From IMG/VR virus record IMGVR_UViG_3300020582_000001, positions 1 through 47,928 of that record: a DNA stretch of 47,928 nucleotides; one strand, written 5' to 3'. Source of the stretch: a virus. The notes beneath the pieces are model-generated. The model worked only from the letters and a program-made list of their open reading frames with translations, did no database searches and was not told the origin of the DNA. The position numbers and the translations under genes were made by a program. This document shows, piece after piece, positions 1 through 47,903 of this stretch (positions within the stretch are counted from its first letter, which is position 1; each line of letters begins with the position of its first letter).

Positions 1-127
1 CTGGAGGGGTTGCAGAACCTCGCCGCCGACTACTTCGGTACTCATCCGCGTTGGAATGAGTTTGTCCAGGCTGCGAACCGTATGGTGATCGCCAATGGCT
101 GATGGTGATACCCCAATCGTCGAGGAA
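1..127. repeat. Terminal direct repeat, left copy (identical to 47802..47928); the contig closes into a 47,801-bp circle
   Basis: Read directly: bases 1-127 (ctggaggggttgcagaacc...caatcgtcgaggaa) recur exactly at 47802-47928. The repeat cuts through a CDS (1..102 duplicates the 3' end of 47706..47903) and through the start of the scaffold gene. Confidence 0.95.
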
Positions 128-916
128 AAGCCGTGGTGGTCCGCACTTGACGCTGAGCACCAAGGGCATGTGCAGAATAAGGGTTGGGAGAAGCTAGGCC
201 CAGCCGAAGCCGCCATCGAGCTTACCAAGGCTTGGAAGGGCGCTGAGAAGCTGATTGGCATCCCCAAGGACGAACTCCTGCGTATGCCAAAGGCTGACGA
301 TGCCGAGGCTCAGAAGGCATTTTGGGGCAAGCTCGGGGCGAAGGAAAAGGCTGAGGAATACCAGTTCACCGGCCAGGACAAGCTCGACCCGAAGCTGGTT
401 GAGACGGCCCGCGCAGCCGCTTTTGAGCTTCGCATCCCTGCCGACAAGGCGGATGCGTTCATGCAGAAGTTCGTGGCCTACGAAGGCTCCAGGGCCGAAG
501 CCAACGCCGCTGCTGCAACCGTGGCGAAGAACCTTGAACTGGAGAAGCTACGGGCCTCGTGGGGGCCTAATTACGATGTGAACCTACTCGCGGCCCAAAG
601 AGCAGCTTCCACCATCCCAGGGATCACTCCAGAGGCCGTGACGGCACTTGAGAGCACGGCGGGATATTCCGTTGTCATGGAGATGTTCCGCAACCTCGAT
701 GCCCGCATGGGCGAAGCCAAGTTCCACACCGGGGACAGCACCACGATCGCTCCGGCCATGACCTATGAGCAGGCGTTGGCTGAGAAGGCCGACTTGATGC
801 GTGATAAGGTCTTTGTCAACAAGTGGATTAATGATGGCGATCGGAGCCCTCAGCGGGTGAAGATTGCTGAACTTGACCGATTGATCGCGTCCAATCCCAA
901 TCATCTTCGTAGGTAG
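95..916 (+). CDS. Putative scaffolding (capsid assembly) protein
   Basis: The ATG overlaps the upstream stop (ATGGCTGA). 273 aa, Ala/Glu/Lys-rich and helical-looking. It sits after the portal plus two small ORFs, which is the T7 gp9 position. Its style resembles podovirus scaffold proteins from memory; not searched. Confidence 0.6.
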   Translation: MADGDTPIVEEKPWWSALDAEHQGHVQNKGWEKLGPAEAAIELTKAWKGAEKLIGIPKDELLRMPKADDAEAQKAFWGKLGAKEKAEEYQFTGQDKLDPKLVETARAAAFELRIPADKADAFMQKFVAYEGSRAEANAAAATVAKNLELEKLRASWGPNYDVNLLAAQRAASTIPGITPEAVTALESTAGYSVVMEMFRNLDARMGEAKFHTGDSTTIAPAMTYEQALAEKADLMRDKVFVNKWINDGDRSPQRVKIAELDRLIASNPNHLRR

Positions 917-921
917 AGACC

Positions 922-1521
922 ATGCACACAGTTGAAGACAGAGACGGGATGCGTGTTCTCGTCGTTACCTCCATGCAGGATTTGTCAAGCATGCAGAGTG
1001 GTTCTCTTGAAATCATTGAAGGGAACAAACTCGAAGAGCCGACTGCTATTGTTCATGCCAATGACATAGCAAAATACTACGGCTTGGATATCAGGGATGT
1101 TTGGCCGTTAGTCCATGCCAATGCTATGGGGCAACGCGTATCATATAATTCTACGCCCACGGAGGACAAAGACAGCCCTACACCTGGAAAGCCAATTCTT
1201 CCCATGACAAAAAACTCTAATCGTAATGAACGGTATTGGGTTGATGGATACGACACCCACGGTAACAAAACCAAGGTAGAGCGTGTTCGTCGTGTTCCCT
1301 ACGTTCAAGAACCAGACGACGGCGTGTACGCGAAGTACACTGACGTTCTCTATTTCGCCGACAGCCAGGGTTGGACTAAGGGCGGCGGCAAGCCGAAGTC
1401 GAAAGAAGCTCAGCAGACCACCAGCGACCTGTCGGTTCTCTCGCAGCAGATTGCCGAGTTGACCAAGCTTATGACCATGCAGGTTCAGCTTTCCCTCGAT
1501 GAGAAGAAGGCCCGTAAATGA
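922..1521 (+). CDS. Hypothetical protein (199 aa), first gene of the scaffold-capsid island
   Basis: Long ORF starting 6 nt after the scaffold stop; its stop overlaps the next start (ATGA). The 5' half looks visibly more AT-rich than its flanks. No family recognised. Confidence 0.65.
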   Translation: MHTVEDRDGMRVLVVTSMQDLSSMQSGSLEIIEGNKLEEPTAIVHANDIAKYYGLDIRDVWPLVHANAMGQRVSYNSTPTEDKDSPTPGKPILPMTKNSNRNERYWVDGYDTHGNKTKVERVRRVPYVQEPDDGVYAKYTDVLYFADSQGWTKGGGKPKSKEAQQTTSDLSVLSQQIAELTKLMTMQVQLSLDEKKARK

Positions 1522-1826
1522 AGGTCAATGTCGAAAAGCTTAGGCTGATCGCTGACTTGGTGCACCCTGTCAAAACCAGGGTGTTCCTCACTACCTCGAA
1601 TTGGGCGCGGATCGCAGCCGAGATTAACCTGGTCTACAAGGATAGCCTTGTGATGCCGAGCGGCAAGCCGACGCCTAAGAACTTTAGGGAGATGGTGATC
1701 CGCTCGACCACCTTCATCAACTCGGGCACTGACGATCAGGACGTGTGTAATCTGCTCAACGACCCCGAAGAAGCCCGCACCCCGTTCCGATTTAGAGAAG
1801 CCAACTTTGCAGTGAGGCGCGCATGA
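1518..1826 (+). CDS. Hypothetical protein (102 aa)
   Basis: ATGA overlap with the upstream ORF; no competing ORF; no family recognised. Confidence 0.6.
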   Translation: MKVNVEKLRLIADLVHPVKTRVFLTTSNWARIAAEINLVYKDSLVMPSGKPTPKNFREMVIRSTTFINSGTDDQDVCNLLNDPEEARTPFRFREANFAVRRA

Positions 1827-1857
1827 CTATAACTTACTCGTACCTCAGGTACGGGAT

Positions 1858-2487
1858 ATGAAGGTCTTCCTCGGCTGCCCAATGGGTGAGAACATTATCC
1901 CGCAGACCGCACTAGCAATTCTAGGGCTTGTCAGTACCAGCAAACTGGCAGCGGTCTCATTTGCTCAGGATGGATACATTGATCGTAATCACAACGGGAT
2001 TGTTGGGAACGCTCTTAGCCTCGGCATGGACGCAATCTTGTTCGTCGATAGCGACCACGAGTTTCCATCCGATAGTCTCGATCGCCTCATCGCCAGGAAG
2101 AAGGACATCGTGGGATGCCAATATCGGATGCGACAAACCCCCTGGGGCCTTATGCCACCGTGCAGCTTGAATGGGAACCAAGACGAACTCGATCATGGGT
2201 GCCAGGAAGTGGAATGGCTCCCCAGCGGCCTTATGCTTGTCCGTACAGATGTGTTTCGGAAACTTCCATTCCCTTGGTTCCCCAACCTGTATGGGAAGAA
2301 GTTGGAGGATTTCGTAGGCTCAGACCGATCATTTTCCCGCAAAGCTCGCGGCCTGGGGGGATATAAACTCTGGTGCGACTTCGACCTTAGTGATAAAGTA
2401 ACGCACATCACGCGGGTCTCAGTGCGCCGCGATGGCACCTTTGTTCACCCTGGTACTTCTCTCGACGGAATTTGTGAGGTAGGTTAA
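1858..2487 (+). CDS. GT-A fold (family 2-like) glycosyltransferase, soluble
   Basis: 209 aa. Motifs: ..RNHNGIVGNAL..DAILFVDSDHEFPSDSLDRLI..DIVGCQY.. (DxD motif in DSD), then ..LPSGLMLVRTDVF..PFPWF.., typical of small GT2 enzymes. No TM segment. Its stop overlaps the endolysin start (TAATG). Confidence 0.65.
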   Translation: MKVFLGCPMGENIIPQTALAILGLVSTSKLAAVSFAQDGYIDRNHNGIVGNALSLGMDAILFVDSDHEFPSDSLDRLIARKKDIVGCQYRMRQTPWGLMPPCSLNGNQDELDHGCQEVEWLPSGLMLVRTDVFRKLPFPWFPNLYGKKLEDFVGSDRSFSRKARGLGGYKLWCDFDLSDKVTHITRVSVRRDGTFVHPGTSLDGICEVG

Positions 2488-2936
2488 TGAAACTGTCCAC
2501 CGCAGGAGCTACGTTTATCGCCAGCCTTGAGGGCACCAAGCTTGTAGCCTATCAGGACGTGGCTGGTGTCTGGACGATTGGCTGCGGCCATACAGGAGAC
2601 GTGAACCCAGGCGATCATATCACCCAAGATCAGGCTATGTCACTCCTGCTGATGGACACGGCTCGCTTTGCCAGGGCAGTGGACTTCTACACCAATGTCC
2701 AGACCCAAACCAATCAGAACGGGTTTGATGCGATGGTGAGCTTGGCCTATAACATTGGGGTCAACGCTTTCCTTGGCTCCTCGGTTCTGAAAAAGCACCT
2801 GGCGGCTGATTGGTATGGTGCCCAAGCTGCCTTCCTCTTGTGGGATAAAGCCCATATCGACGGGTGCCTATGCACGGTTCCCGGCCTCCTCAACCGCCGC
2901 AAACAGGAAGCGGCCCTCTATTTGAAAGCTGTCTGA
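2487..2936 (+). CDS. Endolysin, GH24 (T4/lambda R-type) lysozyme
   Basis: 149 aa. FIASLEGTKLVAYQDVAGVWTIGCGHT (catalytic Glu in xLEG, then the D and T/GxGH pattern), ..SLAYNIG.., ..GLLNRRKQEAALY.. at the C-terminus. No signal peptide or SAR segment. Confidence 0.9.
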   Translation: MKLSTAGATFIASLEGTKLVAYQDVAGVWTIGCGHTGDVNPGDHITQDQAMSLLLMDTARFARAVDFYTNVQTQTNQNGFDAMVSLAYNIGVNAFLGSSVLKKHLAADWYGAQAAFLLWDKAHIDGCLCTVPGLLNRRKQEAALYLKAV

Positions 2937-3379
2937 TGGCTCTCCAGTTCTCTACCACCTACCGCAATTACATGCTGAACAACAGTTCATCGGGCGCGAA
3001 CATCGTCAATGCGCTGCTCGGCTCAGGCTCCAACCTTCTGGTCTATGACAACTCGGCTGGTGTCCCGGCCACGTGTGCGGCTTCGGCAACCGGGAACCTC
3101 CTGGCGACGATCGCCCTCGGCACCCCGGAAAGCTCGACGGAACCATTTGCTCAGGCTACCGCTGAGACAATGACCCTATCGGGCCTGACTATCGCCGGCA
3201 CCGCGTCTGGTGGCTCCGCTGCTACGCCTGGGTACTTTCGCCTGGAAACCAGTGGCGGCACCACGCATATTCAGGGCACCGCTGGCATTAGCTCGGGCGA
3301 CCTGTCCTTCAACGGAACGATCACCAATGGGCAGACGATCGACATTACTGGCTTCACGATCACCGCGCCTGGTGCGTAA
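2936..3379 (+). CDS. Hypothetical protein (147 aa), Gly/Thr/Ser-rich beta-type
   Basis: I take the start as the ATG overlapping the endolysin stop (ATGA at 2934-2938), not the track start at 2864. Sequence begins MALQFSTTYRNYML... No family recognised. Confidence 0.6.
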   Translation: MALQFSTTYRNYMLNNSSSGANIVNALLGSGSNLLVYDNSAGVPATCAASATGNLLATIALGTPESSTEPFAQATAETMTLSGLTIAGTASGGSAATPGYFRLETSGGTTHIQGTAGISSGDLSFNGTITNGQTIDITGFTITAPGA

Positions 3380-3382
3380 ACC

Positions 3383-4741
3383 GTGGCTTTTGGTGCGAGG
3401 ATACAGGGCTCCGTCAATGTAAACGGTAGTGGGGGGCCTGTTTCTACAACTCTTTCTGCGATAACAAATGGCAACATAGTCATTTTATGCGCTGCTACTA
3501 CTGGTGCAGCACCAGTGGTTTCAGACAATCAAGGAAACTCCTATTCCGCTGGGGAGGTAATGAACTATGCTACTGGCGCGATCTTTGCCATTTATTACCT
3601 CCTAAATTGTACGAACGGCCCAACGACATTCTCTATGAGTTCTGCGGGGGCGGGGATTACCCAACTCTCCGCAGAGGAATTTACCGGAACCTCTACAGCC
3701 GTTTATGACACCGGCAATCAAGCAAATGACGCATCCTCGGGAGAATTTTTTACCCCAGGGAATATAACCCCATCGAGCTCTGGTGAATTATTAATCGCTT
3801 ATGCGCAATCTAATAATTACCCTATATCCCTAGCTGTTGATAGCCCATTCACAATCGGGGAAGCAAGCGTTACTCTTCCTCATATCGCTTCCGCATATTA
3901 CCTCGATAGCGGTTCTTCTGCGATTACAAGCACGTTTGATGGCGGCTCTGCTAACAACGGGGGCATCTCTGGCATTATTGCTATATCCGCTGGTGGGTCT
4001 GCTGCTACCGCTTCCCTCGCGGTTACGATGCCAGACCTTACCTTGGTTGGCACCGCTACCGTTCCGATCGCGGCCACCCTCGCTAAGACGATGCCGGCTT
4101 TCACGTTATCTGGCACAGCCACGGTTCCTGTTGGTGCCACTCTCGCCGTCACGATGCCCAACTTCACGCTGGCTGGCACCGGGACAATTATCACTGCCGC
4201 GACCCTAGCTAAGACGATCGCTGATCTTACCCTGGCTGGCACGGCTACGGTATCTGGTGGAGTAGTCAGCGGCACACTCGCTGCCACTATGCCTGCCTTC
4301 ACCCTGGTAGGAACAGCCGGGGTAATCTCAGCCGGCAGCCTCGCCGCCACTATCCCCAGCTTTACCCTGGTGGGTACGGCCCAGGTTCTCTCTGTCGTTA
4401 CCGCGGCTCTGGCTGCTACGTTCCCAGCCTTCATCCTGACCGCCACTGCCCTAGTAGGCAAGGCTCCGGTGCCACCCCCGCCTGATGGGGTTTCCAATTT
4501 CATCATGCAGGGTTTGCTGCTAGGGACGATAGTGACCGATGAACCGATCGCAGCGGGGGCTTACAAGGTCTCTGTGTCTGCTCGGTGGAACCAAGGGTCG
4601 AAGATCACCATTGGCACGATCAATGGCCCCGCGTATTCCTGGACCAACAATAGCCGGCGAGGGGTGGCTTTCCCGCTTGGGCAACTGGTGGTCACAGTGC
4701 AGAACGCGACATCGGTAAAAATCGTTATCTCTCCTAGTTGA
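3383..4741 (+). CDS. Repeat-containing putative virion surface/fibre protein (452 aa)
   Basis: GTG start 4 nt after the upstream stop. N-terminal about 200 aa is a beta-rich lectin-like region. It is followed by seven in-frame approx 21-aa repeats (consensus A-T-L-A-x-T-M-P-x-F-T-L-x-G-T-A-T-V), a PVPPPP linker and a C-terminal about 90-aa domain. The function is inferred. Confidence 0.7.
   Translation: MAFGARIQGSVNVNGSGGPVSTTLSAITNGNIVILCAATTGAAPVVSDNQGNSYSAGEVMNYATGAIFAIYYLLNCTNGPTTFSMSSAGAGITQLSAEEFTGTSTAVYDTGNQANDASSGEFFTPGNITPSSSGELLIAYAQSNNYPISLAVDSPFTIGEASVTLPHIASAYYLDSGSSAITSTFDGGSANNGGISGIIAISAGGSAATASLAVTMPDLTLVGTATVPIAATLAKTMPAFTLSGTATVPVGATLAVTMPNFTLAGTGTIITAATLAKTIADLTLAGTATVSGGVVSGTLAATMPAFTLVGTAGVISAGSLAATIPSFTLVGTAQVLSVVTAALAATFPAFILTATALVGKAPVPPPPDGVSNFIMQGLLLGTIVTDEPIAAGAYKVSVSARWNQGSKITIGTINGPAYSWTNNSRRGVAFPLGQLVVTVQNATSVKIVISPS
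4010..4465 (+). repeat. Seven tandem in-frame repeats of 60-75 bp (mostly 63 bp) inside CDS 3383..4741
   Basis: Units read at 4010-4072, 4073-4135, 4136-4198, 4199-4273, 4274-4336, 4337-4405 and 4406-4465. Peptides: ASLAVTMPDLTLVGTATVPIA / ATLAKTMPAFTLSGTATVPVG / ATLAVTMPNFTLAGTGTIITA / ATLAKTIADLTLAGTATVSGGVVSG / TLAATMPAFTLVGTAGVISAG / SLAATIPSFTLVGTAQVLSVVTA / ALAATFPAFILTATALVGKA. Confidence 0.9.
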
Positions 4742-5010
4742 CACCAAGCCTACCATAGCGTAATCTATCTATTCGGTCGGGCGTATAGGGCGTCGTGTAA
4801 TGCGCGCTTCCCGCCCTCGGGCTTCGCATGTATCCCCGCCTTTAGGCCCCCTACAGGGCACCGGTGGCGACCATGTGGGCCGCGCGCCCGACCGAATGGG
4901 GATACGTGTGAAGCGGCCCCCCGCACCCTACCCGCCCGACCGGCCCCCGCAAGGATACGGCTGTAGAGCAGTTACTCTATTGGCCTTAACCCTTGTGACA
5001 GGAGCCCTCC
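4742..5010 (+). promoter_or_regulatory. GC-rich structured non-coding leader upstream of the major capsid gene
   Basis: 269-nt gap in an otherwise gap-free operon. A 12-bp perfect long-range pairing joins 4772-4783 (ttcggtcgggcg) to 4885-4896 (cgcccgaccgaa). A second copy of cgcccgaccg lies at 4933-4942. A nested hairpin pairs 4787-4792 with 4812-4817. AGGAG at 5001-5005 precedes the GTG start. Confidence 0.5.
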
Positions 5011-5976
5011 GTGGCAACTCTCGCCCCTTTTGAAACCAGCATGGAGACGGTGCAGTTTAACACCACCTTCGAGATGCTGTTGCAGCAAGAAGTCTCCAAG
5101 CTTCGCGGCATGGTAGACAGCAAAGCTTATGTCGGTCGTATGGCCCAGGTGGTCAACCAGATTGGTGCCCTTGAGTTCAAGCAGCCCGCTGGCCGATACT
5201 CTCCCCTCCAGTTCCAGATTGCTCAGTACACTCGTCCGTGGGTGCAGCCGACCGACCGTGACATCGCGGTTCCGTTCGACACCTTTGACGAATTGAAGTC
5301 CATCGCCGATCCGAAAGCTGCCATCAGCATGTCTGTGGTTGCAGCGGCGAACCGCTTCTACGACGATCTTATTATCAATGCCTTTGCCGGTACTACCCAG
5401 CGTGGCCAGGACGCACAGACCCTTACGGGCGAGACGTTCCCCACTACGGTCAGCACGACTACCAGCGCCTCGGCCCCGTTTGGCGGCTTCGTGGTGGCTG
5501 ATACGTTTGGTGCGGGTGCCAGCGTTGGCATGACCTTTAACAAAATCCGTGAAGCCCAGCGCGTTCTTCGCCACTACGAGAACAACCTTGCAGCGGAGAA
5601 GCCTACCCTGGTGGTTGGTTCGCAGCAGATTTCTGATTTGCTCGGCCAGGTCGAAGTCATCGACAAGTCGTACAATGACAGTGCGGTTGTTGAGCAGGGC
5701 GAAGTCACCAGCATCCTCGGGACGATGATCGTATCGAGTGAGCGTCTGAACACCAGTTCCAGCAATACGCTGCGCAACTGCTTCATGTTCGTCCGCAGTG
5801 GTATGCACCTTGGCATCTGGAAAGATATGTCCACTCGGATCGACAACCGGCAGGATTTGTCTTCGCAGCCTTGGCAGTTGTATTCGATGATTTCCGCTGG
5901 CGCATGTCGCACCCAGCTTGGTAAGATCATCCAAATCAATTGCGCCGATACCACCGGCTCCGACATCACTCCGTAA
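5011..5976 (+). CDS. Major capsid protein (HK97-fold, T7 gp10-like position)
   Basis: GTG start 5-6 nt after AGGAG. 321 aa. N-terminal ..FNTTFEMLLQQEVSKLRGMV.. resembles the N-terminal region of podovirus capsid proteins as I recall them. Synteny runs scaffold..capsid..adaptor. The long antisense ORF 4972..6015 is a shadow ORF. Confidence 0.75.
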   Translation: MATLAPFETSMETVQFNTTFEMLLQQEVSKLRGMVDSKAYVGRMAQVVNQIGALEFKQPAGRYSPLQFQIAQYTRPWVQPTDRDIAVPFDTFDELKSIADPKAAISMSVVAAANRFYDDLIINAFAGTTQRGQDAQTLTGETFPTTVSTTTSASAPFGGFVVADTFGAGASVGMTFNKIREAQRVLRHYENNLAAEKPTLVVGSQQISDLLGQVEVIDKSYNDSAVVEQGEVTSILGTMIVSSERLNTSSSNTLRNCFMFVRSGMHLGIWKDMSTRIDNRQDLSSQPWQLYSMISAGACRTQLGKIIQINCADTTGSDITP

Positions 5977-6003
5977 TCGCTGGTCTGAAAGGAAGATATT
6001 TCT

Positions 6004-6693
6004 ATGGCACAGCAATCTGCTCCGACGAGCGCTCTTTATAGCGTCACCGTCGCGGGTCTCGATCCTAACCAGAACTCGGGCTTTGTTACTCGTCCGACCG
6101 CTGGGCAGGGTGGTGCTGGCAGGCTTGTGGTTGCAACGGGCACGGTCCTGTTTGCAGCCACCACGGCCACCACTGTCGCGACCCGTATGGTTCGTATTCC
6201 CTCTAATGCTATCGTGAAGTCAGTCGCCTTTGCGCTCGACCTCGCTGGTGGTACGGCGACCACGTTGACGGGTGCGACCGGCCTGTTGTTCTCGGACAAC
6301 GTTCTGGACGGCACTAGCACCATCAACGCCGGTTCGCTCACCCCCTACTCATCCTCGTTCTTCACGGCGACGACTGCGATGGCTGGTTACACCACGGCCT
6401 TCACCAACGTCACGTACCTGAACTCTGCTGGCAACTCGGCCACGGACGGCTACAATGTTCCCTCCTCTAGCACTCTGCCGATCTGGCTGGCTGTTACGCA
6501 GGGTGGACCTGGGCCGGTTCAGACGCCTGGCGCTTGGGCGGGCACTGGCGCAACCTCGCTCTCCACTTCGCCCTCCTACCACGTTGGCGTCGATCCGGGC
6601 GGGTTCTTCGATGTGTTCTTCCAGCCGACGACCACGACCAACCTTTCGGCTGCGATGAACTTCACCTGCGAAGTCACCTACGTAACTACGTAA
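6004..6693 (+). CDS. Thr/Ala/Gly-rich virion protein (229 aa), possible capsid decoration/cement protein
   Basis: Good SD (aaaggaag) upstream; it immediately follows the capsid gene. Thr-rich tracts are present (ATTATTVAT, GGTATTLTGATG, QPTTTTNLS). The function is inferred from position only. Confidence 0.6.
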   Translation: MAQQSAPTSALYSVTVAGLDPNQNSGFVTRPTAGQGGAGRLVVATGTVLFAATTATTVATRMVRIPSNAIVKSVAFALDLAGGTATTLTGATGLLFSDNVLDGTSTINAGSLTPYSSSFFTATTAMAGYTTAFTNVTYLNSAGNSATDGYNVPSSSTLPIWLAVTQGGPGPVQTPGAWAGTGATSLSTSPSYHVGVDPGGFFDVFFQPTTTTNLSAAMNFTCEVTYVTT

Positions 6694-7841: not shown

Positions 7842-8230
7842 TGGCAAACATGACATATGTGAACCGTTGCCCCCAGGCCATTGCGGCTACTGGTGGTCTC
7901 GGTTCCTACCCAGCGCCTGGCAATAACAGGTTCACTACGGTCGATCCTGCCCAGGTGTTCAACGCTGCGGAGAGTACCGCTTGGACGGTGCTGATCGTGG
8001 CGGCGAATGCTGCGGCGGTCACTGCCGGCTACGGGCAGAATGATCCTGGCTATGGGCAGGGCATGATTACCAATTATGGCACCTACCTTGCCAGCGTTCT
8101 AGCGGCTGCTAAGACTGCCGGATATACCCCTGGCACCGCAGCGGTGGGCAGTATCACCCCCAATGGTATCTGGACCTGGCTCTACAATGCCACGGCTCTG
8201 AACGGGACCATCCTCGCACCAGGTACTTGA
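7841..8230 (+). CDS. Hypothetical virion-module protein (129 aa)
   Basis: Start taken at the ATG at 7841 overlapping the upstream TAA (MANMTYVNRC...), not the track start at 7811. Confidence 0.6.
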   Translation: MANMTYVNRCPQAIAATGGLGSYPAPGNNRFTTVDPAQVFNAAESTAWTVLIVAANAAAVTAGYGQNDPGYGQGMITNYGTYLASVLAAAKTAGYTPGTAAVGSITPNGIWTWLYNATALNGTILAPGT

Positions 8231-8231
8231 T

Positions 8232-8909
8232 ATGGCTGAATACACTACTAGCGTAGATATCGCCAACAAGGCTCTGCAACATCTCGGCGCACCGCTGATC
8301 GCCACCCTGGCGGACAACAGCAAGAACGCCGTGCAGATGAATTTCGCCTACGACAAATGTCGGCAGGCTGAACTCCGCTCTCACGTCTGGCAGTTCTCAA
8401 TCGCCTATTCTACTCTCGCGGCTGCCAGCCCTGCCACCCAAGCTTTCCAAAATGGGGCAGTCCGCAATAGGTTTACGCTGCCAGCCAACTACGTTCGTAT
8501 GGCCCAGCAAGACCCGCACACTGCTGGTGTTTCTAACCAGAATGTGACGGCTGGCCTCCAGTGGTCCGACTATTCTGTAGAGGGTACGATCCTTCTCACC
8601 GCGAACCCAAGCGTCCTTCTTCGGTACGCATCGGACATTACCACCGTCACGGCCTTCGATGCGCTGTTCGATGAAGCCCTGGCGGCTCGCCTGGCGTTCG
8701 ACACGTGCGAAGTCATCACTCAGAACCTCAATAAGCGTGGGCAGATGGCACAGATTTACGCTGAGCGTATCGCTATGGCCCAAACCCTCAACTTGATTGA
8801 GACCGCTGCTGATGAGCCGACTGAGCTTGAAGCGATGTTCTCGCGCATTAATCAGAACCCTAATGGGCCTGTGCAACCACAACAGGGTGGTGGTAGAGGG
8901 CAACGGTAA
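8232..8909 (+). CDS. Head-tail adaptor / tail tubular protein A (T7 gp11-like)
   Basis: N-terminus VDIANKALQHLGAPLIATLADNSKNAVQMNFAYDKCRQAELRSHVWQF follows the pattern of T7 gp11 as I recall it (..NDILASIGEPPVSTLEGD....ARRILNKINRQIQSRGWTF). It lies just upstream of the nozzle gene. Confidence 0.7.
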   Translation: MAEYTTSVDIANKALQHLGAPLIATLADNSKNAVQMNFAYDKCRQAELRSHVWQFSIAYSTLAAASPATQAFQNGAVRNRFTLPANYVRMAQQDPHTAGVSNQNVTAGLQWSDYSVEGTILLTANPSVLLRYASDITTVTAFDALFDEALAARLAFDTCEVITQNLNKRGQMAQIYAERIAMAQTLNLIETAADEPTELEAMFSRINQNPNGPVQPQQGGGRGQR

Positions 8910-10423
8910 TGGACGCCTTCAAGGCTCCAGTTGACATCTACAATCGGGCCGCTCAGCATATGCACCTGCCTCGTATCGCTGCTCCTGGTGATATGTCTCA
9001 GGTAGCGCAGGAGCTAAACTTCGCCTACGACAAGATCAGACAGGCCGAACTACGCCGCAATCTCTGGAGGTTTGCCACCAGGAGGCAGCAAGTCAGGCCG
9101 CTCGACTACACGACGATGATTATAAAGCCCTTGTTGTGGCAGGCACCTACAGCCTACCCTGCCGGGGCCATCGTCTCTTATCCGCTGGGCAACTATTGGA
9201 TTAGCCGGTTGCCTAACACCAATCAGGTGCCGAGCAACACCACGGTAGACAGCTACGGCGAACTGGTGTGGGATAGCTACTTCGGCCCTCTCACCGCGCA
9301 ATCTTGGAACCATCAGGTGCCCGGTCAACCTGAGCCGTCGCAAGGCAGCGGGGGTAGTGCCGCGTATGATACCCCTGGTTCCGAGAACTACCAGGCTGGT
9401 GAGCTTGCTTTTGTCCCTATAGGGAATGGCACCGCAGTCCTGTTCCAATGCCTCCAGGGCACCAACATTGGGCCTCTTGAAGCCGAAGGATATGTAGACA
9501 ACCACTATTACAACAAGGGGCAGATTGTCTCTTGGCCTAGCTCGGCGACCTTCATCTTGGGGCCGAATGGTGATACACTATCTGATGCGTCTGGTCTAGG
9601 CAATGTTCTATACCAGAGCACCAGCGACATCAACATCGGCAATGATCCCCAACTCACTCAACTTGGTCCTGGCTCTGGTGGGGCACCGCCTTGGGATGGC
9701 GTCACCAGTTTTGTGGTTTCAGACTACGCTTACGGAACTGACAATCAAATCTATCTATGTGTAGCACCCAGCACTGGCAACTACCCCGATGGTGTGGACG
9801 AGCAAGGGAATGTGGTTACTCCTGGCTCCAATCCTGTCACCGATTATGCCAACGCCTTCTGGCAGCCGCAGTATATGTATATGGGTATGTGGCAACCACT
9901 CGCCACCAATCCCGGTGCTCTGTCTATCCACTGGCAGCAGATACAAGCCAATCTGGTTCCGATCACCCTCGCGTGGCCAAGAGGCTCAAGAGGCTGGCCA
10001 GTCGGCACCGGCCCCGCATCAGAAGAGACGAGCAGCAATATCTATCGGCTCCCGGCGAACTGGATGCGCAGGGCAGCGGAAGACCCGAAATCGGACCTGG
10101 CTCCCTACCTGGGTGGACCGAGCTTCATCAACTACAAGGATTGGGTATTCGAGGGCGATTGGATGATAAGTCATCTGACGGGTCCAGTTCTATTCCGTTT
10201 CGTCGCCGACGTGCAGGACGTTACCGCATTCGATCCCATGTTCGCTGAGGCATTGGCCCTGGCCCTGGCGATTGAGTGTGCTTCTGCTTGTGGCAGTAAA
10301 CGTCCTCTCAATGAGATTGTTAGTCTCTATAAGAACGTGATTGAGGATGCCCGCACGGTGGACGCCATCGAACAGGGCATGACAACCGAACCCGATGATT
10401 TGCTAATAGCCGTCAGATTTTAG
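8909..10423 (+). CDS. Enlarged paralog of the gp11-like adaptor (504 aa)
   Basis: N-terminus VDIYNRAAQHMHLPRIAAPGDMSQVAQELNFAYDKIRQAELRRNLWRFA and C-terminus VLFRFVADVQDVTAFDPMFAEALALALA align by eye with 8232..8909 (VLLRYASDITTVTAFDALFDEALAARLA). About 280 extra residues sit in the middle. Confidence 0.7.
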   Translation: MDAFKAPVDIYNRAAQHMHLPRIAAPGDMSQVAQELNFAYDKIRQAELRRNLWRFATRRQQVRPLDYTTMIIKPLLWQAPTAYPAGAIVSYPLGNYWISRLPNTNQVPSNTTVDSYGELVWDSYFGPLTAQSWNHQVPGQPEPSQGSGGSAAYDTPGSENYQAGELAFVPIGNGTAVLFQCLQGTNIGPLEAEGYVDNHYYNKGQIVSWPSSATFILGPNGDTLSDASGLGNVLYQSTSDINIGNDPQLTQLGPGSGGAPPWDGVTSFVVSDYAYGTDNQIYLCVAPSTGNYPDGVDEQGNVVTPGSNPVTDYANAFWQPQYMYMGMWQPLATNPGALSIHWQQIQANLVPITLAWPRGSRGWPVGTGPASEETSSNIYRLPANWMRRAAEDPKSDLAPYLGGPSFINYKDWVFEGDWMISHLTGPVLFRFVADVQDVTAFDPMFAEALALALAIECASACGSKRPLNEIVSLYKNVIEDARTVDAIEQGMTTEPDDLLIAVRF

Positions 10424-10431
10424 GATAAGAA

Positions 10432-10689
10432 ATGGCAACCTTGACCCTAGCTACTATGTCGGCAGCCCAGGTGCTCGCGACCAAGCTCATCACCGTCAAC
10501 CAGGCCCTCACTACCCTGGCGGGCAACCCAGCCTTGTCAACGCCGCTTCTGTCCTTTGCAGGCTTCCCGCCCGTCCCTACTGACCTGGTGTCTAGCTCAG
10601 TTTTCAACGCAGCTTTCACTAGCGTTCTACAGGCTGAACAGACCGCCTTAGTAGCGGCCCTCGAAGCCCTCGGGGCACCCACGACCTAA
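10432..10689 (+). CDS. Hypothetical small virion-module protein (85 aa)
   Basis: ATG 9 nt after the upstream stop; its stop overlaps the nozzle start (TAATG). Confidence 0.55.
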   Translation: MATLTLATMSAAQVLATKLITVNQALTTLAGNPALSTPLLSFAGFPPVPTDLVSSSVFNAAFTSVLQAEQTALVAALEALGAPTT

Positions 10690-19855: not shown

Positions 19856-19879
19856 ACCTCTGTGGAGTATAATCGACCG

Positions 19880-21721
19880 ATGCGCAAACTGATCCTAGCG
19901 GCGTGCTTGGCACTCGCATCCCTGACCCTCGGCCACGCTGCTCATGCTGGTTGTCCGGTTCCCAATCCTAATCTCCAAGCACCCCCGTTCTATGATGGGT
20001 GCATTGTCCCTGCTATCGCCCTTAATCGCTTAGGTGCTCCCGGTCCCGTCTTTTCCCCGCTGGCCTATGGTGCCAAATGCGATGGGGTGACTGACGACAC
20101 CACTGCGCTCAATGCTACTGGTGCAGCGGCAGTGGCGACTGGCGGCTCAATCGCATGGCCTGCCAAGACTTGCTATAGTGCGACGGGTGTTACCTTCGCC
20201 GGCCCAATCTCAATCCGAGGAACGTCGTTTGTCCCCAGCTTGGATAGCGGGTTGGTAGGCTCGGCTCTCGAATGTCCTAACACCATCACTGCATGCCTCA
20301 AGCTCACTGGTGGCACCGGCAACTTAAATGCCGTGTCGATCCGTGACCTGTTTGTGTACGGCAAAGGTACCACACCTACCTCTGGTTCGACTGGCATCTG
20401 GCAGGCGAATGGTGCGGTAGTTACGTGGCAGGATGTTGCCTCAGTCAATTGGGATACGTGCACTAAATTCAGTTCCGCTTCGTCGGCTGGCATCCGTATG
20501 TCGGGACAGAGTATCTACACCGGCGCTTGCTTCACTCATGCGTACACCATTGACGGCTGGCCTGAAATCCTAATCAATGGTGGCGCTGCGGATATTGAAG
20601 GTTCTAATTCTGTTGCAGCTACCGGGCAAAACGATTTTGTCTTCGGCACTAATACCGCCTGCACTACTGGTGGCTGCGGACCTAACACCATCAATTTTGA
20701 GAACTACAACTTCATCACTAATGGTGGGGTATCCTGCTTCTTCAATCTCGCGGGCAACCAGCATCCGACCGATGGTGTGGTCGCAGAATTTCGGTTCCTA
20801 GATGACCATGTTGAGTTTCACGATGCTGCAACCGCGCCAGCAGGATTAATCTGTACCGACAGCACTATTCCACTGTTGGCAAATTTGTATGTCACGAATA
20901 TGCTGACAGCTTCGTTCCAGGCTGGTGGTGCAGCGGGCTCCTATCTGCCTTTGTTCAGCCTGAACTCCAACACTGCCTTGAATGAAGTTCACTTCTCCAA
21001 CAACAGTTTTGACAACTGCACCTACAGTGGCGGCCCCAACATGGCCCTCATTGATCCGTCGCCCGCTTCGGGGGCAGCAGTTAGCAATACCCATTTCGAC
21101 AGCAATGATTTTTGTTCGGGGATCAGCGTTACCTCCAATGGCGTAGGCTCTAATAAGTTCCTTTCGACCGGTAACATTGGTGCTCTGTCTAATATCGCAG
21201 GCTCCTGGGCTGATTTTGAGAGCATGGGCGACGGGTTGCAGGCGGGCTTTACTGATACCGCAACCGGGCATGTGGCAATCGGTTCCTCATACATGAAAGC
21301 GTGGACGCCAGTTCTCCAGTTCTGCACAGGCAGTTCGTGCTCAGGTTCGGGCATCACCTACTCCACTGACAGCGGCTCCTATAGTCGTACCTCAGACGGT
21401 GGCTTCACGGAGACCTTCGCTATCGTGCTCTTGACGAACACCGCAGGCTCGGGCACGTCTACCGAAATTACCGGAGAGCCAGCGGGGCTTGCCTGCACGG
21501 CGGCGAACATTGGTAGCGGGTCAATCCCTTATGTGTCTGGCTTTGCCAGCGCTAGTATCTCTGTGCCACTACAACCGTATTGGAACCCCAATGTAAGCCC
21601 GGTTTCGATCGGGGTACAACAAGCCGCAGCGTCCGCTACCGGATATGCACCCATCCCCTATTCGGCATGGGTTACTGGTTCCACGATTTACGGTTCGATC
21701 CACTGCGCTCACACCACGTAA
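19880..21721 (+). CDS. Secreted right-handed beta-helix (pectate-lyase-like) polysaccharide depolymerase candidate
   Basis: ATG at 19880 lies 10 nt after GGAG (the track start GTG 19862 is also possible). N-terminus MRKLILAACLALASLTLGHAAHA/GCP is a classical Sec signal with an A-H-A cleavage site. ..PLAYGAKCDGVTDDTTALNATGAA.. matches the Pectate_lyase_3-type tailspike motif. Confidence 0.75.
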   Translation: MRKLILAACLALASLTLGHAAHAGCPVPNPNLQAPPFYDGCIVPAIALNRLGAPGPVFSPLAYGAKCDGVTDDTTALNATGAAAVATGGSIAWPAKTCYSATGVTFAGPISIRGTSFVPSLDSGLVGSALECPNTITACLKLTGGTGNLNAVSIRDLFVYGKGTTPTSGSTGIWQANGAVVTWQDVASVNWDTCTKFSSASSAGIRMSGQSIYTGACFTHAYTIDGWPEILINGGAADIEGSNSVAATGQNDFVFGTNTACTTGGCGPNTINFENYNFITNGGVSCFFNLAGNQHPTDGVVAEFRFLDDHVEFHDAATAPAGLICTDSTIPLLANLYVTNMLTASFQAGGAAGSYLPLFSLNSNTALNEVHFSNNSFDNCTYSGGPNMALIDPSPASGAAVSNTHFDSNDFCSGISVTSNGVGSNKFLSTGNIGALSNIAGSWADFESMGDGLQAGFTDTATGHVAIGSSYMKAWTPVLQFCTGSSCSGSGITYSTDSGSYSRTSDGGFTETFAIVLLTNTAGSGTSTEITGEPAGLACTAANIGSGSIPYVSGFASASISVPLQPYWNPNVSPVSIGVQQAAASATGYAPIPYSAWVTGSTIYGSIHCAHTT

Positions 21722-21730
21722 GGAACAATC

Positions 21731-22006
21731 ATGAAGTACCTAATCTATGCTACCGTTGCTGTTGCTCTCGCCATGCTATGTGCCTCCTGTCAGCCCGTCA
21801 ATGATGGGGCCTCTGGCATGAAGCTAATGGTGGCTGGTAATGCCTGTCACTTCGGCGACGTACCTGGTGGCGCTGGTGCAGTCCGCTCGATGCAGGCTTG
21901 CGTTGTAATCACCACGTCCGGGGCCACTAGCTCGGTTCCCACCACCACGACCACACCTACCACTACGGTTACGGTGCCGGTCTCTGCCGTGCCGAGCGTA
22001 CCATGA
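21731..22006 (+). CDS. Small exported protein / probable lipoprotein with Thr-Pro-rich tail (91 aa)
   Basis: MKYLIYATVAVALAMLCASCQPV.. is a signal sequence with an imperfect lipobox (CAS-C). The C-terminus is SSVPTTTTTPTTTVTVPVSAVPSVP. Its stop overlaps the next start (ATGA). Confidence 0.6.
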   Translation: MKYLIYATVAVALAMLCASCQPVNDGASGMKLMVAGNACHFGDVPGGAGAVRSMQACVVITTSGATSSVPTTTTTPTTTVTVPVSAVPSVP

Positions 22007-43641: not shown

Positions 43642-44151
43642 ATGAACACGATCTTAGAAGACAGCAAGCTCGGTCCCGCCATGTCTAGCCTGAATGCCAG
43701 GCAAAGGTCATTCGTGATCGCCTATTGTGCCACTGGTGGCAAGAACGCCGTAGGAGCGGCTAGAACCGCAGGCTACGAGGGTACAGACGTGTCCCTTCGC
43801 GTTCAAGCCCACCGGCTGGCGCATTCCGAGGCGGTCCAGGCAGCCATCCACGAGGAAGTCGGTCGCCGGCAGCAGGCCCTCGCCCCGATGGCACAATTGA
43901 ACATCGAAAGGATCGCCAATAACACGCTCAACCGCAATTCATTCGAGGCCAACAAGCTTCTCCTGGCCCTAGCCGGTCACTCCGCAGTGCAAAAATCCGA
44001 GCACAAGGTCACTCAGGAGCTTACCACCAAGGAAATGATTGAGGAAATCCGCAAACTCGGCGCTACCCTGGGGGCAAACGTCGTCAAATCGCTCCTGCCA
44101 CCCACAATCGACATCACTCCGACCTCAGTGGTAGTCGATGACGACTTCTGA
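43642..44151 (+). CDS. terS: Terminase small subunit (Terminase_2-like)
   Basis: ..LNARQRSFVIAYCATGGKNAVGAARTAGYEGTDVSLRVQAHRLAHSEAVQAAI.. is the classic HTH opening of Terminase_2 small subunits. It lies directly upstream of terL. Confidence 0.8.
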   Translation: MNTILEDSKLGPAMSSLNARQRSFVIAYCATGGKNAVGAARTAGYEGTDVSLRVQAHRLAHSEAVQAAIHEEVGRRQQALAPMAQLNIERIANNTLNRNSFEANKLLLALAGHSAVQKSEHKVTQELTTKEMIEEIRKLGATLGANVVKSLLPPTIDITPTSVVVDDDF

Positions 44152-45637
44152 CCTCGAAACTCTCGACCGGAGCGAGCTAAACCGGATACTCGCGGGCCTC
44201 AAAGCGGCTGAGAAGCTAAAGCAAAGGGCAAAACTTGACTTCTTCGTACCCTACCCTAAGCAATTGGAGTTTTACAGGCTCGGCGCAACGAAGCGCGAGC
44301 GTGTTATCATGGCTGGAAACCAGCTTGGAAAGACGGAGTGCGGTGCCGTCGAGATGGCTTTCCATCTCACTGGTCTCTACCCCAAATGGTGGCCTGGAAA
44401 ACGTTTTACGAAACCCATTATGGCATGGGCCTGTGGGGAAAGCGCAGCAAAGGTAAGAGATGTCCAACAATCAAAACTCTGTGGACACCATACGATCGCT
44501 CAGTTGCCGAGTGACGAAGGTTGGGGAACTGGTTTTATCCCCCGGCACCTGCTTCTCGGTAGAACTCTCGGACATGGAACTACAGGCGCTTTTGATACGA
44601 TCACTGTCCGTCACACCACAGGCGGAATTAGCGTCCTTGGTTTTAAGTCTTATGTCCAAGGCCGTGCCCTGTTCCAAGCCGACAGCCTCGACCTGGTTTG
44701 GGAAGATGAGGAACCGCCTGGCGACGTTCATTCGGAGTGTAAGGCGCGCATAACCGCTACTGGCGGAATGCTCTACATGACCTTCACGCCGCTGAACGGC
44801 ATTACCGAGATTGTGTCGGATTTCTACCCAGCCCCCAATTCCGTCAGTCGGGGCTTTGTGCTGATGGGGATGAGGGACGTTACCCACATTCCCAATCCCG
44901 AGGAAGTGGCTGCCGGTTACAAACCTTTCGAGCGCGAAGCCCGCGTCAATGGCATTCCCCTCTTGGGCTCAGGTGCCGTGTGGGAGGAAGTGTCACCTGA
45001 CATGATCCGTGTGCCACCAATCCCGCTTAGTGAGATACCGCCTTTCTGGAAGAAGATAGCCGGGGTGGACTTTGGCATTGGTCACCCTTTCGCGTGTGCT
45101 ACCCTTTGTCACGATGCCGATGCGGATATCGTCTATGTCGTCCACGAACACAAAGTTGCAGATGCAATGTCCGCACTGCATGTCGCTGCACTCCGTCCCG
45201 TCCTCGGAGAAATTCCTGTCGCGTGGCCACATGACGGGGGAGACCGTGAAAAATCCACAGGCATACAGCTTGTCGAAAGCTACCGCGATCTTCCCGGCAG
45301 TCCTGGCTTGCGGATGCGGCCTACTCACGCTACTCACCCGCGAGGAGGCTATTCAACTGAGGCTGGTATAGATGCCATCCTGATACGGATGCGCACTGGC
45401 CGCTTCAAGGTTTTCAGCACCCTCGTCAACTGGTGGTTAGAGTTTGGAAGCTACCATCGCAAAGATGGTTTGATCGTAAAAAAGAATGATGACTTGATGT
45501 CCGCAACAAGGCAGGGTATTATGGACCTTCGGTACGCCCGCCCTGTGCTGTTCGGGAGACCGCCTGCGCTCAAAAAGCCAGGACCGCCTCAGCAGCTTGA
45601 CCCTTGGACAGACAGGCCGGTGAAACTTGGCTACTAA
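44138..45637 (+). CDS. terL: Terminase large subunit
   Basis: 499 aa. ..YPKQLEFYRLGATKRERVIMAGNQLGKTECGA.. (Walker A-like GNQxGKT), an ..LVWEDEEP.. acidic Walker B-like motif, and a C-terminal nuclease-like half. It overlaps terS by 14 nt. Confidence 0.9.
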   Translation: MTTSDLETLDRSELNRILAGLKAAEKLKQRAKLDFFVPYPKQLEFYRLGATKRERVIMAGNQLGKTECGAVEMAFHLTGLYPKWWPGKRFTKPIMAWACGESAAKVRDVQQSKLCGHHTIAQLPSDEGWGTGFIPRHLLLGRTLGHGTTGAFDTITVRHTTGGISVLGFKSYVQGRALFQADSLDLVWEDEEPPGDVHSECKARITATGGMLYMTFTPLNGITEIVSDFYPAPNSVSRGFVLMGMRDVTHIPNPEEVAAGYKPFEREARVNGIPLLGSGAVWEEVSPDMIRVPPIPLSEIPPFWKKIAGVDFGIGHPFACATLCHDADADIVYVVHEHKVADAMSALHVAALRPVLGEIPVAWPHDGGDREKSTGIQLVESYRDLPGSPGLRMRPTHATHPRGGYSTEAGIDAILIRMRTGRFKVFSTLVNWWLEFGSYHRKDGLIVKKNDDLMSATRQGIMDLRYARPVLFGRPPALKKPGPPQQLDPWTDRPVKLGY

Positions 45638-47456: not shown

Positions 47457-47698
47457 CCCTCACTCAAATGCAGGAGTGCTATCGTGCTACTTTCCTCGGG
47501 AAAGACGGCCAGGTGGTGCTCCAGGACTTGATGGGGAAATGTTTTGCCAACCAGACGACTGCTGTTGCTAATGAGCGGCAATCCATGCTCAATGAGGGCC
47601 ACCGGCAAGTCTGGCTCCATATCAACACGATGCTGAACCTGACCCCTGAGCAGATAGCCCGCTGCCAGCTTGGTCTTCCCTTCATCCAGGGCGAATAG
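47453..47698 (+). CDS. Small conserved head-module protein (possibly Bbp19-like)
   Basis: 81 aa, with ATGA overlap to the portal stop. ..FLGKDGQVVLQDLMGKCF....NEGHRQVWLHINTML.. resembles the Bbp19-type small proteins found after podovirus portals. This is from memory only. Confidence 0.6.
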   Translation: MTLTQMQECYRATFLGKDGQVVLQDLMGKCFANQTTAVANERQSMLNEGHRQVWLHINTMLNLTPEQIARCQLGLPFIQGE

Positions 47699-47705
47699 GA
47701 ATACC

Positions 47706-47903
47706 GTGGCTGACACTCCGTCAACACCCTCGGAAATCCGAGCAGAACTAAAGGTCGTGAAGCGCCTTGTCGCTGAGCTACCTATCCAACATGCGCTAAA
47801 CCTGGAGGGGTTGCAGAACCTCGCCGCCGACTACTTCGGTACTCATCCGCGTTGGAATGAGTTTGTCCAGGCTGCGAACCGTATGGTGATCGCCAATGGC
47901 TGA
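47706..47903 (+). CDS. Hypothetical small head-module protein (65 aa)
   Basis: GTG at 47706 follows AGGA. Its 3' end lies inside the terminal repeat (= 1..102) and overlaps the scaffold ATG. Confidence 0.5.
   Translation: MADTPSTPSEIRAELKVVKRLVAELPIQHALNLEGLQNLAADYFGTHPRWNEFVQAANRMVIANG

Follow-up and report, generated by a model that had tools for sequence, protein, structure and literature searches.

A predicted minimal GT-A glycosyltransferase in a two-layered interval between the scaffold-like and major capsid genes of a podovirus-like genome

Gene organization between the scaffold-like and capsid genes

The DNA analysed here (the window) is a viral stretch of 47,928 nt, positions 1-47,928 of IMG/VR record IMGVR_UViG_3300020582_000001, to which all coordinates refer. 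It looks like a complete, circularly permuted podovirus genome. We focused our study on the interval 922-4741, located between a scaffold-like gene and the major capsid gene, which includes a gene for a 209-aa glycosyltransferase (GT). The original prediction, made from the sequence letters alone, had described this interval as one accessory island of six co-oriented and tightly packed open reading frames (ORFs), and the ORFs and their arrangement were confirmed. The genes described in this paragraph lie on the + strand. The upstream boundary, outside the insert, is the scaffold-like gene (95-916; 273 aa), whose product matches phrog_3742 (2.3e-14) and is 27-36% identical to that of the gene preceding the capsid gene in DU_RP_II, MW202898 and two of our comparison loci (L015 and L025); we infer from its position and composition that it encodes the scaffold. 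It is followed by a trio of genes formed by p199 (922-1521), p102 (1518-1826, with a start that overlaps the p199 stop) and the GT gene (1858-2487). The start of the next gene, encoding a 149-aa GH24 (T4-type) endolysin (2487-2936), overlaps the GT stop; then come p147 (2936-3379, with an ATG at 2936, a longer GTG form from 2864 being also possible) and p452 (3383-4741), which encodes a modular repeat protein. A leader (4742-5010), with the motif GGCCCCCGCAAGGATACGGC at 4942-4961 and an AGGAG ribosome-binding site, precedes the major capsid gene (5011-5976; Phage_capsid_2, 6.6e-54), the downstream boundary, and p229 (6004-6693), just 3′ of the capsid gene, encodes a Ser/Thr-rich protein (28%).

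Loci for comparison, labelled with L-numbers, were gathered via the capsid protein, the GT and p199, and the window proteins were compared with them by tblastn. All six ORFs have homologues in related metagenomic contigs and are under purifying selection (dN/dS 0.02-0.28 in comparison with near-identical relatives), which indicates that they are real coding genes. The presence of an extra 3.8 kb between scaffold and capsid genes was also substantiated in relation to distant relatives, since in these the scaffold-like and capsid genes are separated by no more than one small ORF. In the two loci with 43% capsid identity (L015 and L016), the scaffold-capsid gap is about 800 bp and contains none of the six genes.

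The description as one accessory island, on the other hand, did not hold, since the first three genes are conserved in the clade and diverge together with the scaffold gene, and only the distal half is variable cargo. The interval consists of two layers: the trio p199, p102 and GT (922-2487), packed behind the scaffold gene, and a permissive cargo slot (2487-4741) upstream of the capsid gene. The trio was found at the same site in every relative with at least 67% capsid identity, and it is missing in those with 43% or less; altogether, it lies between scaffold and capsid genes in nine loci from four distinct relative lineages, over a range of capsid identity from 98% to 67%. Loci L009 and L010 (capsid identity about 98%) carry all six genes between scaffold and capsid, and so does L018, which ends 22 residues into the capsid gene. 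In L023 (95%) the trio is followed by genes for a 175-aa protein and a 589-aa Gly-rich repeat protein; L005 resembles it, its contig ending before the capsid gene. The trio alone, followed by 384 bp of non-coding DNA, is present in L013 and L014 (81%), and in L004 (67%) it precedes two small ORFs, a GH108 lysin gene and a 74-aa ORF.

The trio and the scaffold gene lose identity to the window in parallel (in L023, 63% for the scaffold and 62-68% for the trio), which indicates a clade-level module rather than a recent insertion. An island ancestral in close relatives, which the original prediction had named as evidence against itself, was half borne out: the trio belongs to the clade as a whole, and the distal slot is variable. 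In comparison with L009 and L010, the trio shows dS values of 0.32-0.97, several-fold above those of the scaffold and capsid genes (0.14-0.18). These values point to an allelic replacement by recombination among close relatives, through which the window acquired its divergent trio allele. As predicted, the 5′ part of the first gene is AT-rich (922-1221, GC content 0.463, within the lowest 2% of 300-bp windows), and a second low-GC patch corresponds to the region of the N-terminal domain of p452. The GC content of the whole interval (0.543) equals the window mean (0.544), so that it is not compositionally foreign; the possibility of a recent horizontally acquired island was rejected on the basis of this overall composition and of the parallel divergence of trio and scaffold gene.

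Homologues of p199, with 37-80% identity, occupy the same site in L009, L010, L018, L023, L005, L013, L014 and L004, and no match for it was found in Pfam, PHROG or NCBIfam or by tblastn against phages. Its dN/dS value against L009 is 0.11 (dS 0.96). The AlphaFold model of p199 was poor (predicted local distance difference test score, pLDDT, of 52.8 from an alignment of 6 sequences), and at best suggests small beta/alpha elements, a variable disordered linker corresponding to the low-GC 5′ half, and a long C-terminal helix. Homologues of p102 (37-96% identity) directly follow p199 in all the trio-carrying relatives. This protein matched no family in Pfam, PHROG or NCBIfam, and showed no similarity to the protein of about 100 aa encoded before the GT in SU10-type phages.

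The glycosyltransferase and its family

The AlphaFold model of the GT, obtained from a 105-sequence alignment, had a pLDDT of 93 and a predicted TM-score of 0.89. The DSD motif recognised in the original prediction corresponds to D64-S65-D66 (residues 64-66), and the absence of a membrane segment was also borne out: the most hydrophobic stretch (residues 18-36) forms a core helix and strand, with a pLDDT of 97 there. Comparison of the model with the PDB through Foldseek gave 190 matches at E≤0.001, and all 50 matches listed are glycosyltransferases. The top match was A197 of Sulfolobus turreted icosahedral virus (STIV; 2c0n), with E 3.2e-9 and TM-scores of 0.63/0.69, followed by COLGALT1, Mnn9, B4GALNT1, KfiA, LH3, heparosan synthase and ppGalNAc-transferases; the best viral fold matches were uncharacterised GT-A proteins from uncultured phages. 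The protein shows the features of the GT-A superfamily, that is, a single Rossmann-like alpha/beta/alpha nucleotide-sugar domain with a DxD motif and a C-terminal His, and also those of a minimal viral enzyme of the A197 type, being virus-encoded, 209 aa long and reduced to the GT-A core.

All 105 family members aligned share D64 and D66 of the DxD motif and H183, and D156 and D174 are nearly invariant (65-105 members). The DxD motif aligns with that of COLGALT1 (FVDADN). The window GT has GSD where the family consensus is GED, with Asp156 as the acidic residue at the GED position, and its dN/dS values are 0.07-0.09. The model and the conserved residues support the predicted soluble GT-A enzyme with intact catalytic motifs inside the head operon, and indicate a soluble, minimal GT-A enzyme that is probably active.

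The designation as GT2-like stood at the level of fold and failed at the level of family, as the match to Pfam Glycos_transf_2 (PF00535) reached 13.2 bits (E 0.086), under the gathering threshold of 23.3 bits; this profile was matched at E≤0.01 by 11 of 65 family members. No match at E≤0.1 was found to Pfam Anp1 (PF03452; CAZy GT62), a profile matched weakly by 39 of the 65 (best 6.5e-9), nor was there any match in NCBIfam. The GT matches phrog_1574 (3.9e-11), annotated as of unknown function, and it is unassignable to any curated CAZy-type family. A search with the family profile against 1.84 billion cluster representatives (clusters at 50% identity) resulted in 8,750 relatives with E≤1e-3, of which 2,788 reached E≤1e-10; among the 150 matches listed, most are stand-alone proteins of about 200 aa. 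The sequence of the GT alone gave no match to the sequences of the PDB, for which the family profile was required (Mnn9, 7e-6 over about 70-100 residues; COLGALT1, about 4e-5; A197, 1.9e-4).

Like the GT, STIV A197 (PDB 2C0N) is a single-domain GT-A protein of about 200 aa with a DxD motif and with no extra domain or membrane anchor. It is encoded by an archaeal PRD1-type virus, whereas the GT belongs to a tailed phage; identity in the structural alignment is about 12%, the root-mean-square deviation of the match is 10.6 Å, and the sequence match of the family profile to A197 is weak (E 1.9e-4 to 2.7e-3). A197 is proposed to glycosylate the major coat protein B345, the acceptor itself being unproven; it is essential in STIV, the coat protein of which is glycosylated (PMC10551542). 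The best profile matches among solved structures are yeast Mnn9/Anp1 (GT62) and human COLGALT1 (GT25), aligned across the DxD region. These enzymes act on proteins or protein-linked glycans, but they are larger, membrane-anchored and located in the secretory pathway, whereas the window GT is soluble; the similarity spans only about 60-100 residues, and the window GT lies below every Pfam threshold. On the basis of the model, the GT is an uncharacterised virus-encoded GT-A glycosyltransferase for which A197 is the closest solved example. A check of whether the GT belongs to a DNA- or lipopolysaccharide (LPS)-modifying family placed its closest solved relatives outside the DNA-glucosyltransferase and Gtr seroconversion families. 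The features of GtrABC systems are lacking, as the GT has no membrane segment and no Gtr-like partner was recognised among the scanned ORFs; those of T-even DNA glucosyltransferases are lacking as well, as the GT has a GT-A fold and the same set contains no recognisable hydroxymethylase.

Members of the family were found in the head modules of at least three podovirus lineages. In L025 the GT gene lies directly after a portal gene whose product is 52% identical to the window portal, and in L085 after one with 25% identity. The 80 best IMG/VR loci, which are the most similar ones found with one peptide pattern and are dominated by one lineage, so that they are not independent, include 71 from phages with an SU10-type capsid. 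As far as contig ends allow, 67 of the 80 present the order capsid, a gene of about 100 aa, GT and adaptor, and in four the GT is just upstream of the portal gene. The former order was also observed in L021 and in the Manatee Spring podoviruses MW202711 and MW202496, whose "putative glycosyltransferase" belongs to phrog_1574 as well and is 31-35% identical to the GT. These proteins are encoded between capsid and adaptor genes, with a capsid of the SU10_MCP type, in contrast with the different slot and the Phage_capsid_2 capsid of the window. In addition, a prophage of Brevundimonas pondensis (CP062006.1; locus L105, 251017-271682), with a cultured alphaproteobacterial host and SU10-type portal and capsid genes, presents capsid, a 111-aa gene, GT (10001-10666 of the locus) and adaptor, and the GT gene of Microcystis phage Mel-JY34 lies after the capsid gene. 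Where hosts are known or inferred, those of the head-operon members are mostly aquatic, alphaproteobacterial Gram-negative bacteria. The literature that we searched does not describe this family-wide association with podovirus head modules, nor did it contain any report on Mel-JY34 or on glycosylated virions of podoviruses that infect Gram-negative bacteria.

A separate observation concerns L019, a 43-kb phage contig with two paralogous family members (5082-5678 and 8001-8609), about 2.3 kb apart, among small early or accessory genes distant from any recognised head gene.

Variable slot, candidate acceptors and the rest of the genome

The endolysin encoded in the variable slot matches Phage_lysozyme (3.8e-36, 124.6 bits vs a cut-off of 22.3) and phrog_7 (6.8e-49), and contains the triad E15-x8-D24-x5-T30 of GH24/T4-type lysozymes. 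In agreement with the original prediction, no other endolysin was found among the scanned window ORFs. This GH24 gene occupies the slot in L009, L010 and L018 only; it is absent in L023, L005, L013 and L014, and L004 carries the GH108 lysin. The p147 protein (27% Ser+Thr) matches phrog_3758, annotated as virion structural protein, over its full length (8.6e-15), and is 34% identical to gp24 of Pseudanabaena phage Pan4, likewise encoded downstream of an endolysin. The 175-aa protein takes its place in L023 and L005; homology between p147 and the L023 protein was considered and rejected, as no similarity was found between them.

The p452 protein contains an N-terminal domain (aa 1 to about 205) encoded by DNA of low GC content (0.48 vs 0.60 for the rest of the gene), seven repeats of about 21 aa each (aa 212-363, nt 4016-4471; eight in L010) and a C-terminal domain (aa 369-452, nt 4487-4738). 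The repeats were seen at the protein level only, and Tandem Repeats Finder detected no DNA-level repeat in p452. Its counterparts are located at 5702-7123 in L010, about 5290-6745 in L018 and 12031-13800 in L023. In the otherwise near-identical L018, an unrelated N-terminal domain replaces that of p452. With the 589-aa Gly-rich repeat protein encoded at this site in L023, p452 shares only its last 84 aa (51% identity), which correspond to the end of that protein. No explanatory match was found in Pfam, PHROG or NCBIfam, nor any by tblastn against phages; a match to PMI_typeI_C, restricted to 17 residues inside the repeats, was discarded as spurious. The conserved C-terminal anchor and the swappable distal N-terminal domain suggest that p452 is probably a surface fibre or decoration protein.

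The leader motif GGCCCCCGCAAGGATACGGC, which occurs once in the window, is also found in L009, L010, L023 and L004 and, in part, in L013, so that it is conserved down to 67% capsid identity. The RNA of this 270-nt gap folds much better than shuffled sequence (z = −4.07), and a TTGACA hexamer overlies the p452 stop codon; the region may combine a late promoter with a structured leader. Scans for promoters and terminators gave no more matches than in shuffled sequence, and the window contains no Rfam families and no tRNAs.

Two proteins encoded near the GT gene were considered as candidate acceptors. The capsid protein presents a 12-residue Ser/Thr-rich insert, VSTTTSASAPFG (aa 147-158, nt 5449-5484), present in the four GT-carrying relatives aligned and absent in all five GT-lacking ones. 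The loop 147-158 is a candidate glycan acceptor, with TGETFPTTVSTTTSASAPFGG as the candidate acceptor peptide of the GT. Homologues of p229, a protein with no match in Pfam, PHROG or NCBIfam, were found in L004, L023 and L015. Its TTTT tract (aa 209-212) is conserved in the GT-carrying relatives and replaced by ATAA in the GT-lacking L015, which makes p229 a second candidate acceptor. The Thr/Ser tracts quoted in the original prediction are present. The structural proteins are in general richer in Ser/Thr (fractions of 0.12-0.28) than the replication proteins (0.07-0.16), but this richness is ordinary and constitutes a weak argument for glycosylation.

Regarding the rest of the genome, genes for the small and large terminase subunits (43642-45637) and for a T7-type portal (45627-47456; Head-tail_con, 2e-67) were identified. 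Tail and internal-virion genes follow the capsid gene on the + strand, among them that of a 1170-aa internal virion protein with an SLT domain. The − strand carries a replication module with a family A DNA polymerase fragment, a primase-helicase, a PD-(D/E)XK nuclease and a single-stranded DNA-binding (SSB)-like protein. A DNA search with positions 1-6000 of the window gave no match among GenBank phages. The nearest named phages by capsid protein are Ralstonia phages DU_RP_II and RpY1 (33%) and HTVC010P-type pelagiphages (about 29%); the T7-like frame assumed in the original prediction was therefore retained for the portal type and abandoned for kinship, the relatives being podoviruses of the DU_RP_II/HTVC010P type. 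No integrase was recognised among the scanned ORFs.

The gap between portal and scaffold genes contains a 77-aa ORF in the window (47670-47903). At that position L023 (4807-9159) and L005 (3844-8269), with 80-82% portal identity, carry an extra insertion with an ORF of 116-122 aa, a protein of 1,181-1,200 aa with a weak ArabFuran-catal match, a Bbp19-like ORF and a small ORF, and none of these genes is found there in the window. The Bbp19 domain, encoded by a separate small ORF in L005 and L023, is fused to the portal as a C-terminal Phage_Bbp19 domain in L004 (2839-4938). Two adjacent window ORFs (19862-21721 and 21731-22006) encode proteins with lipoprotein-like N-termini (…ALASLTLGHAAHAGC and …VALAMLCASC, respectively), neither of which gave a family match. 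The second, of 91 aa, bears the tract TTTTTPTTTVT and could be an o-spanin or a superinfection-exclusion lipoprotein.

Proposed role of the glycosyltransferase

The best single explanation of these data, to which we assign a probability of about 0.4, is that the GT carries out late cytoplasmic O-glycosylation of virion surface proteins with host nucleotide sugars. The enzyme would be made late, alongside the head proteins, would draw on a host nucleotide sugar in the cytoplasm, and would attach O-glycans to at least one surface protein of the virion, either ahead of assembly or while it proceeds. The capsid loop 147-158 and p229 are candidates for this modification, as are p147 and p452 where present, with p199 and p102 as possible specificity or assembly partners. 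The result would be a capsid coated with sugars, resembling those of mycobacteriophages Che8, Corndog and Myrna and that proposed for the STIV pair A197/B345. Co-orientation and tight packing between scaffold and capsid genes suggest expression together with the structural genes, presumably late. Many of the top fold matches (COLGALT1, LH3, Mnn9, ppGalNAc-transferases) act on proteins or protein-linked glycans, and the scanned window ORFs include no recognisable base-hydroxymethylase, Gtr partner or gene for nucleotide-sugar synthesis.

In the literature searched, tailed-phage virion glycosylation is documented for mycobacteriophages, in which GTs glycosylate capsid and tail-tube proteins (PMC12363180, which summarises Freeman et al. 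2023) and the modification shields the particles from antibodies. The enzymes described there, namely Che8 gp110, Corndog gp38 and the Myrna GT, are cytoplasmic phage GTs acting on capsid or tail-tube proteins, and we propose the same mechanism for the window GT. They come from siphoviruses and myoviruses that infect actinobacteria and in which glycosylation was demonstrated, whereas here it is a proposal, and the only link between the GT and mycobacteriophages is a generic GT-A fold match to gp87 of Mycobacterium phage Ardmore (E 3e-7).

Several observations weigh against virion glycosylation. The contrasts in the capsid insert and in the p229 tract (TTTT vs ATAA) each come from a single clade and represent one evolutionary event, and no contrast between insert and GT was seen in the SU10-type lineage, in which GT-carrying and GT-lacking members alike have a variable capsid loop rich in Ser/Thr/Gly. 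Missing partner genes are a provisional result, since many window ORFs are unannotated. In addition, enzymes for polysaccharides and glycolipids (KfiA, heparosan synthase and B4GALNT1) are among the fold matches, so that the type of acceptor cannot be read from the fold, and the link from GT to acceptor is our inference. The genomic position is equivocal as well. The post-capsid slot of SU10-type phages is an insertion hotspot, since its cargo differs: besides a GT, it holds an HNH endonuclease in Sulfitobacter phage pCB2047-A (L108) and a GH108 endolysin in Ochrobactrum phage OH (L111), and nothing in the GT-lacking relatives MW202481 (L110) and Pseudomonas phage TL (L109), with the order capsid, gene of about 100 aa, adaptor. 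In L019 and L020 the family members belong to early or accessory regions; of 80 bacterial-genome loci, 72 are devoid of any gene from our head-gene panel, and the sampled cellular neighbours are genes for a VapE-like protein, HrpB and a methyltransferase. With unrelated cargo in head slots and numerous family members encoded away from head modules, the location of the GT in the head operon is suggestive but not diagnostic.

Two other roles would leave the virion unmodified, and we consider both of them less likely. The GT could act late, at the inner face of the membrane, on a glycan of the host envelope or on a lipid-linked precursor (LPS core, O-antigen, capsule or exopolysaccharide, EPS), which could keep new virions from adsorbing to debris or prevent superinfection; the head position would then reflect strong late expression only. 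Soluble or peripheral GT-A proteins are common among the envelope GTs of bacteria, WrtF appears among the fold matches in addition to KfiA, heparosan synthase and B4GALNT1, and there are family members in bacterial chromosomes outside prophage head modules. Nevertheless, the scanned ORFs include no recognisable GtrA, GtrC, flippase or polymerase partner, the failure to recognise an integrase there makes lysogenic seroconversion unlikely, and the sampled cellular neighbours include no LPS or EPS gene. Moreover, the GT stays in head modules while capsid identity drops to 41-61%, and late expression would leave a short time for envelope remodelling. The alternative target would be a host protein or small molecule outside the virion, modified for takeover or anti-defence, the head position being that of a tolerant cargo slot. 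This would fit the HNH endonuclease and the GH108 and GH24 endolysins carried by the same slots, the variable place of the GT in the head module (after portal, scaffold or capsid gene, or before the portal gene), and the early or accessory location of other members, with two copies in one contig. It fits less well with the fixation of the GT with p199 and p102 in the window clade while the neighbouring slot turns over, and with its single position in most of the 71 SU10-type loci; general searches, which did not include PADLOC, provided no link to defence or counter-defence.

Glycosylation of phage DNA against restriction, an option named in the original prediction, is very improbable. Phage GTs are classically DNA-modifying enzymes, as in T-even phages, but the alpha- and beta-glucosyltransferases of T4 have a GT-B fold, whereas the window enzyme is GT-A. 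No DNA-glucosyltransferase appeared among its fold or sequence matches, no thymidylate-synthase-like hydroxymethylase or hypermodification gene was recognised in the scanned ORFs, and the gene lies in the head operon rather than in the replication module. Least likely of all is a catalytically dead protein with a structural or assembly role: its location among assembly genes and the GSD in place of the family GED would be compatible with it, but the invariance of the DxD motif and H183, the near invariance of D156 and D174, and the dN/dS of 0.07-0.09 argue for a retained activity.

Should glycosylation of the virion prove wrong, the capsid-adjacent slots would stand as cargo hotspots, and head-operon position alone as no proof of structural function. 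Virion glycosylation by the GT leads to a broader and more doubtful proposal, which we advance tentatively: that a very large family of GTs of about 200 aa (at least 8,750 clusters at 50% identity), present in several podovirus head operons, glycosylates capsid proteins, here at loop 147-158 and/or p229, and makes sugar-coated virions common beyond actinobacteriophages and archaeal viruses. The handles for this question are an enzyme with predicted catalytic residues, two candidate acceptor sites and the Brevundimonas pondensis prophage (CP062006.1, about 251-272 kb), which provides a tractable system for virion glycosylation. If the proposal is true, capsid glycans would be a widespread and overlooked trait of environmental phages, with a bearing on adsorption, particle stability, grazing and aggregation, immune recognition and phage engineering.

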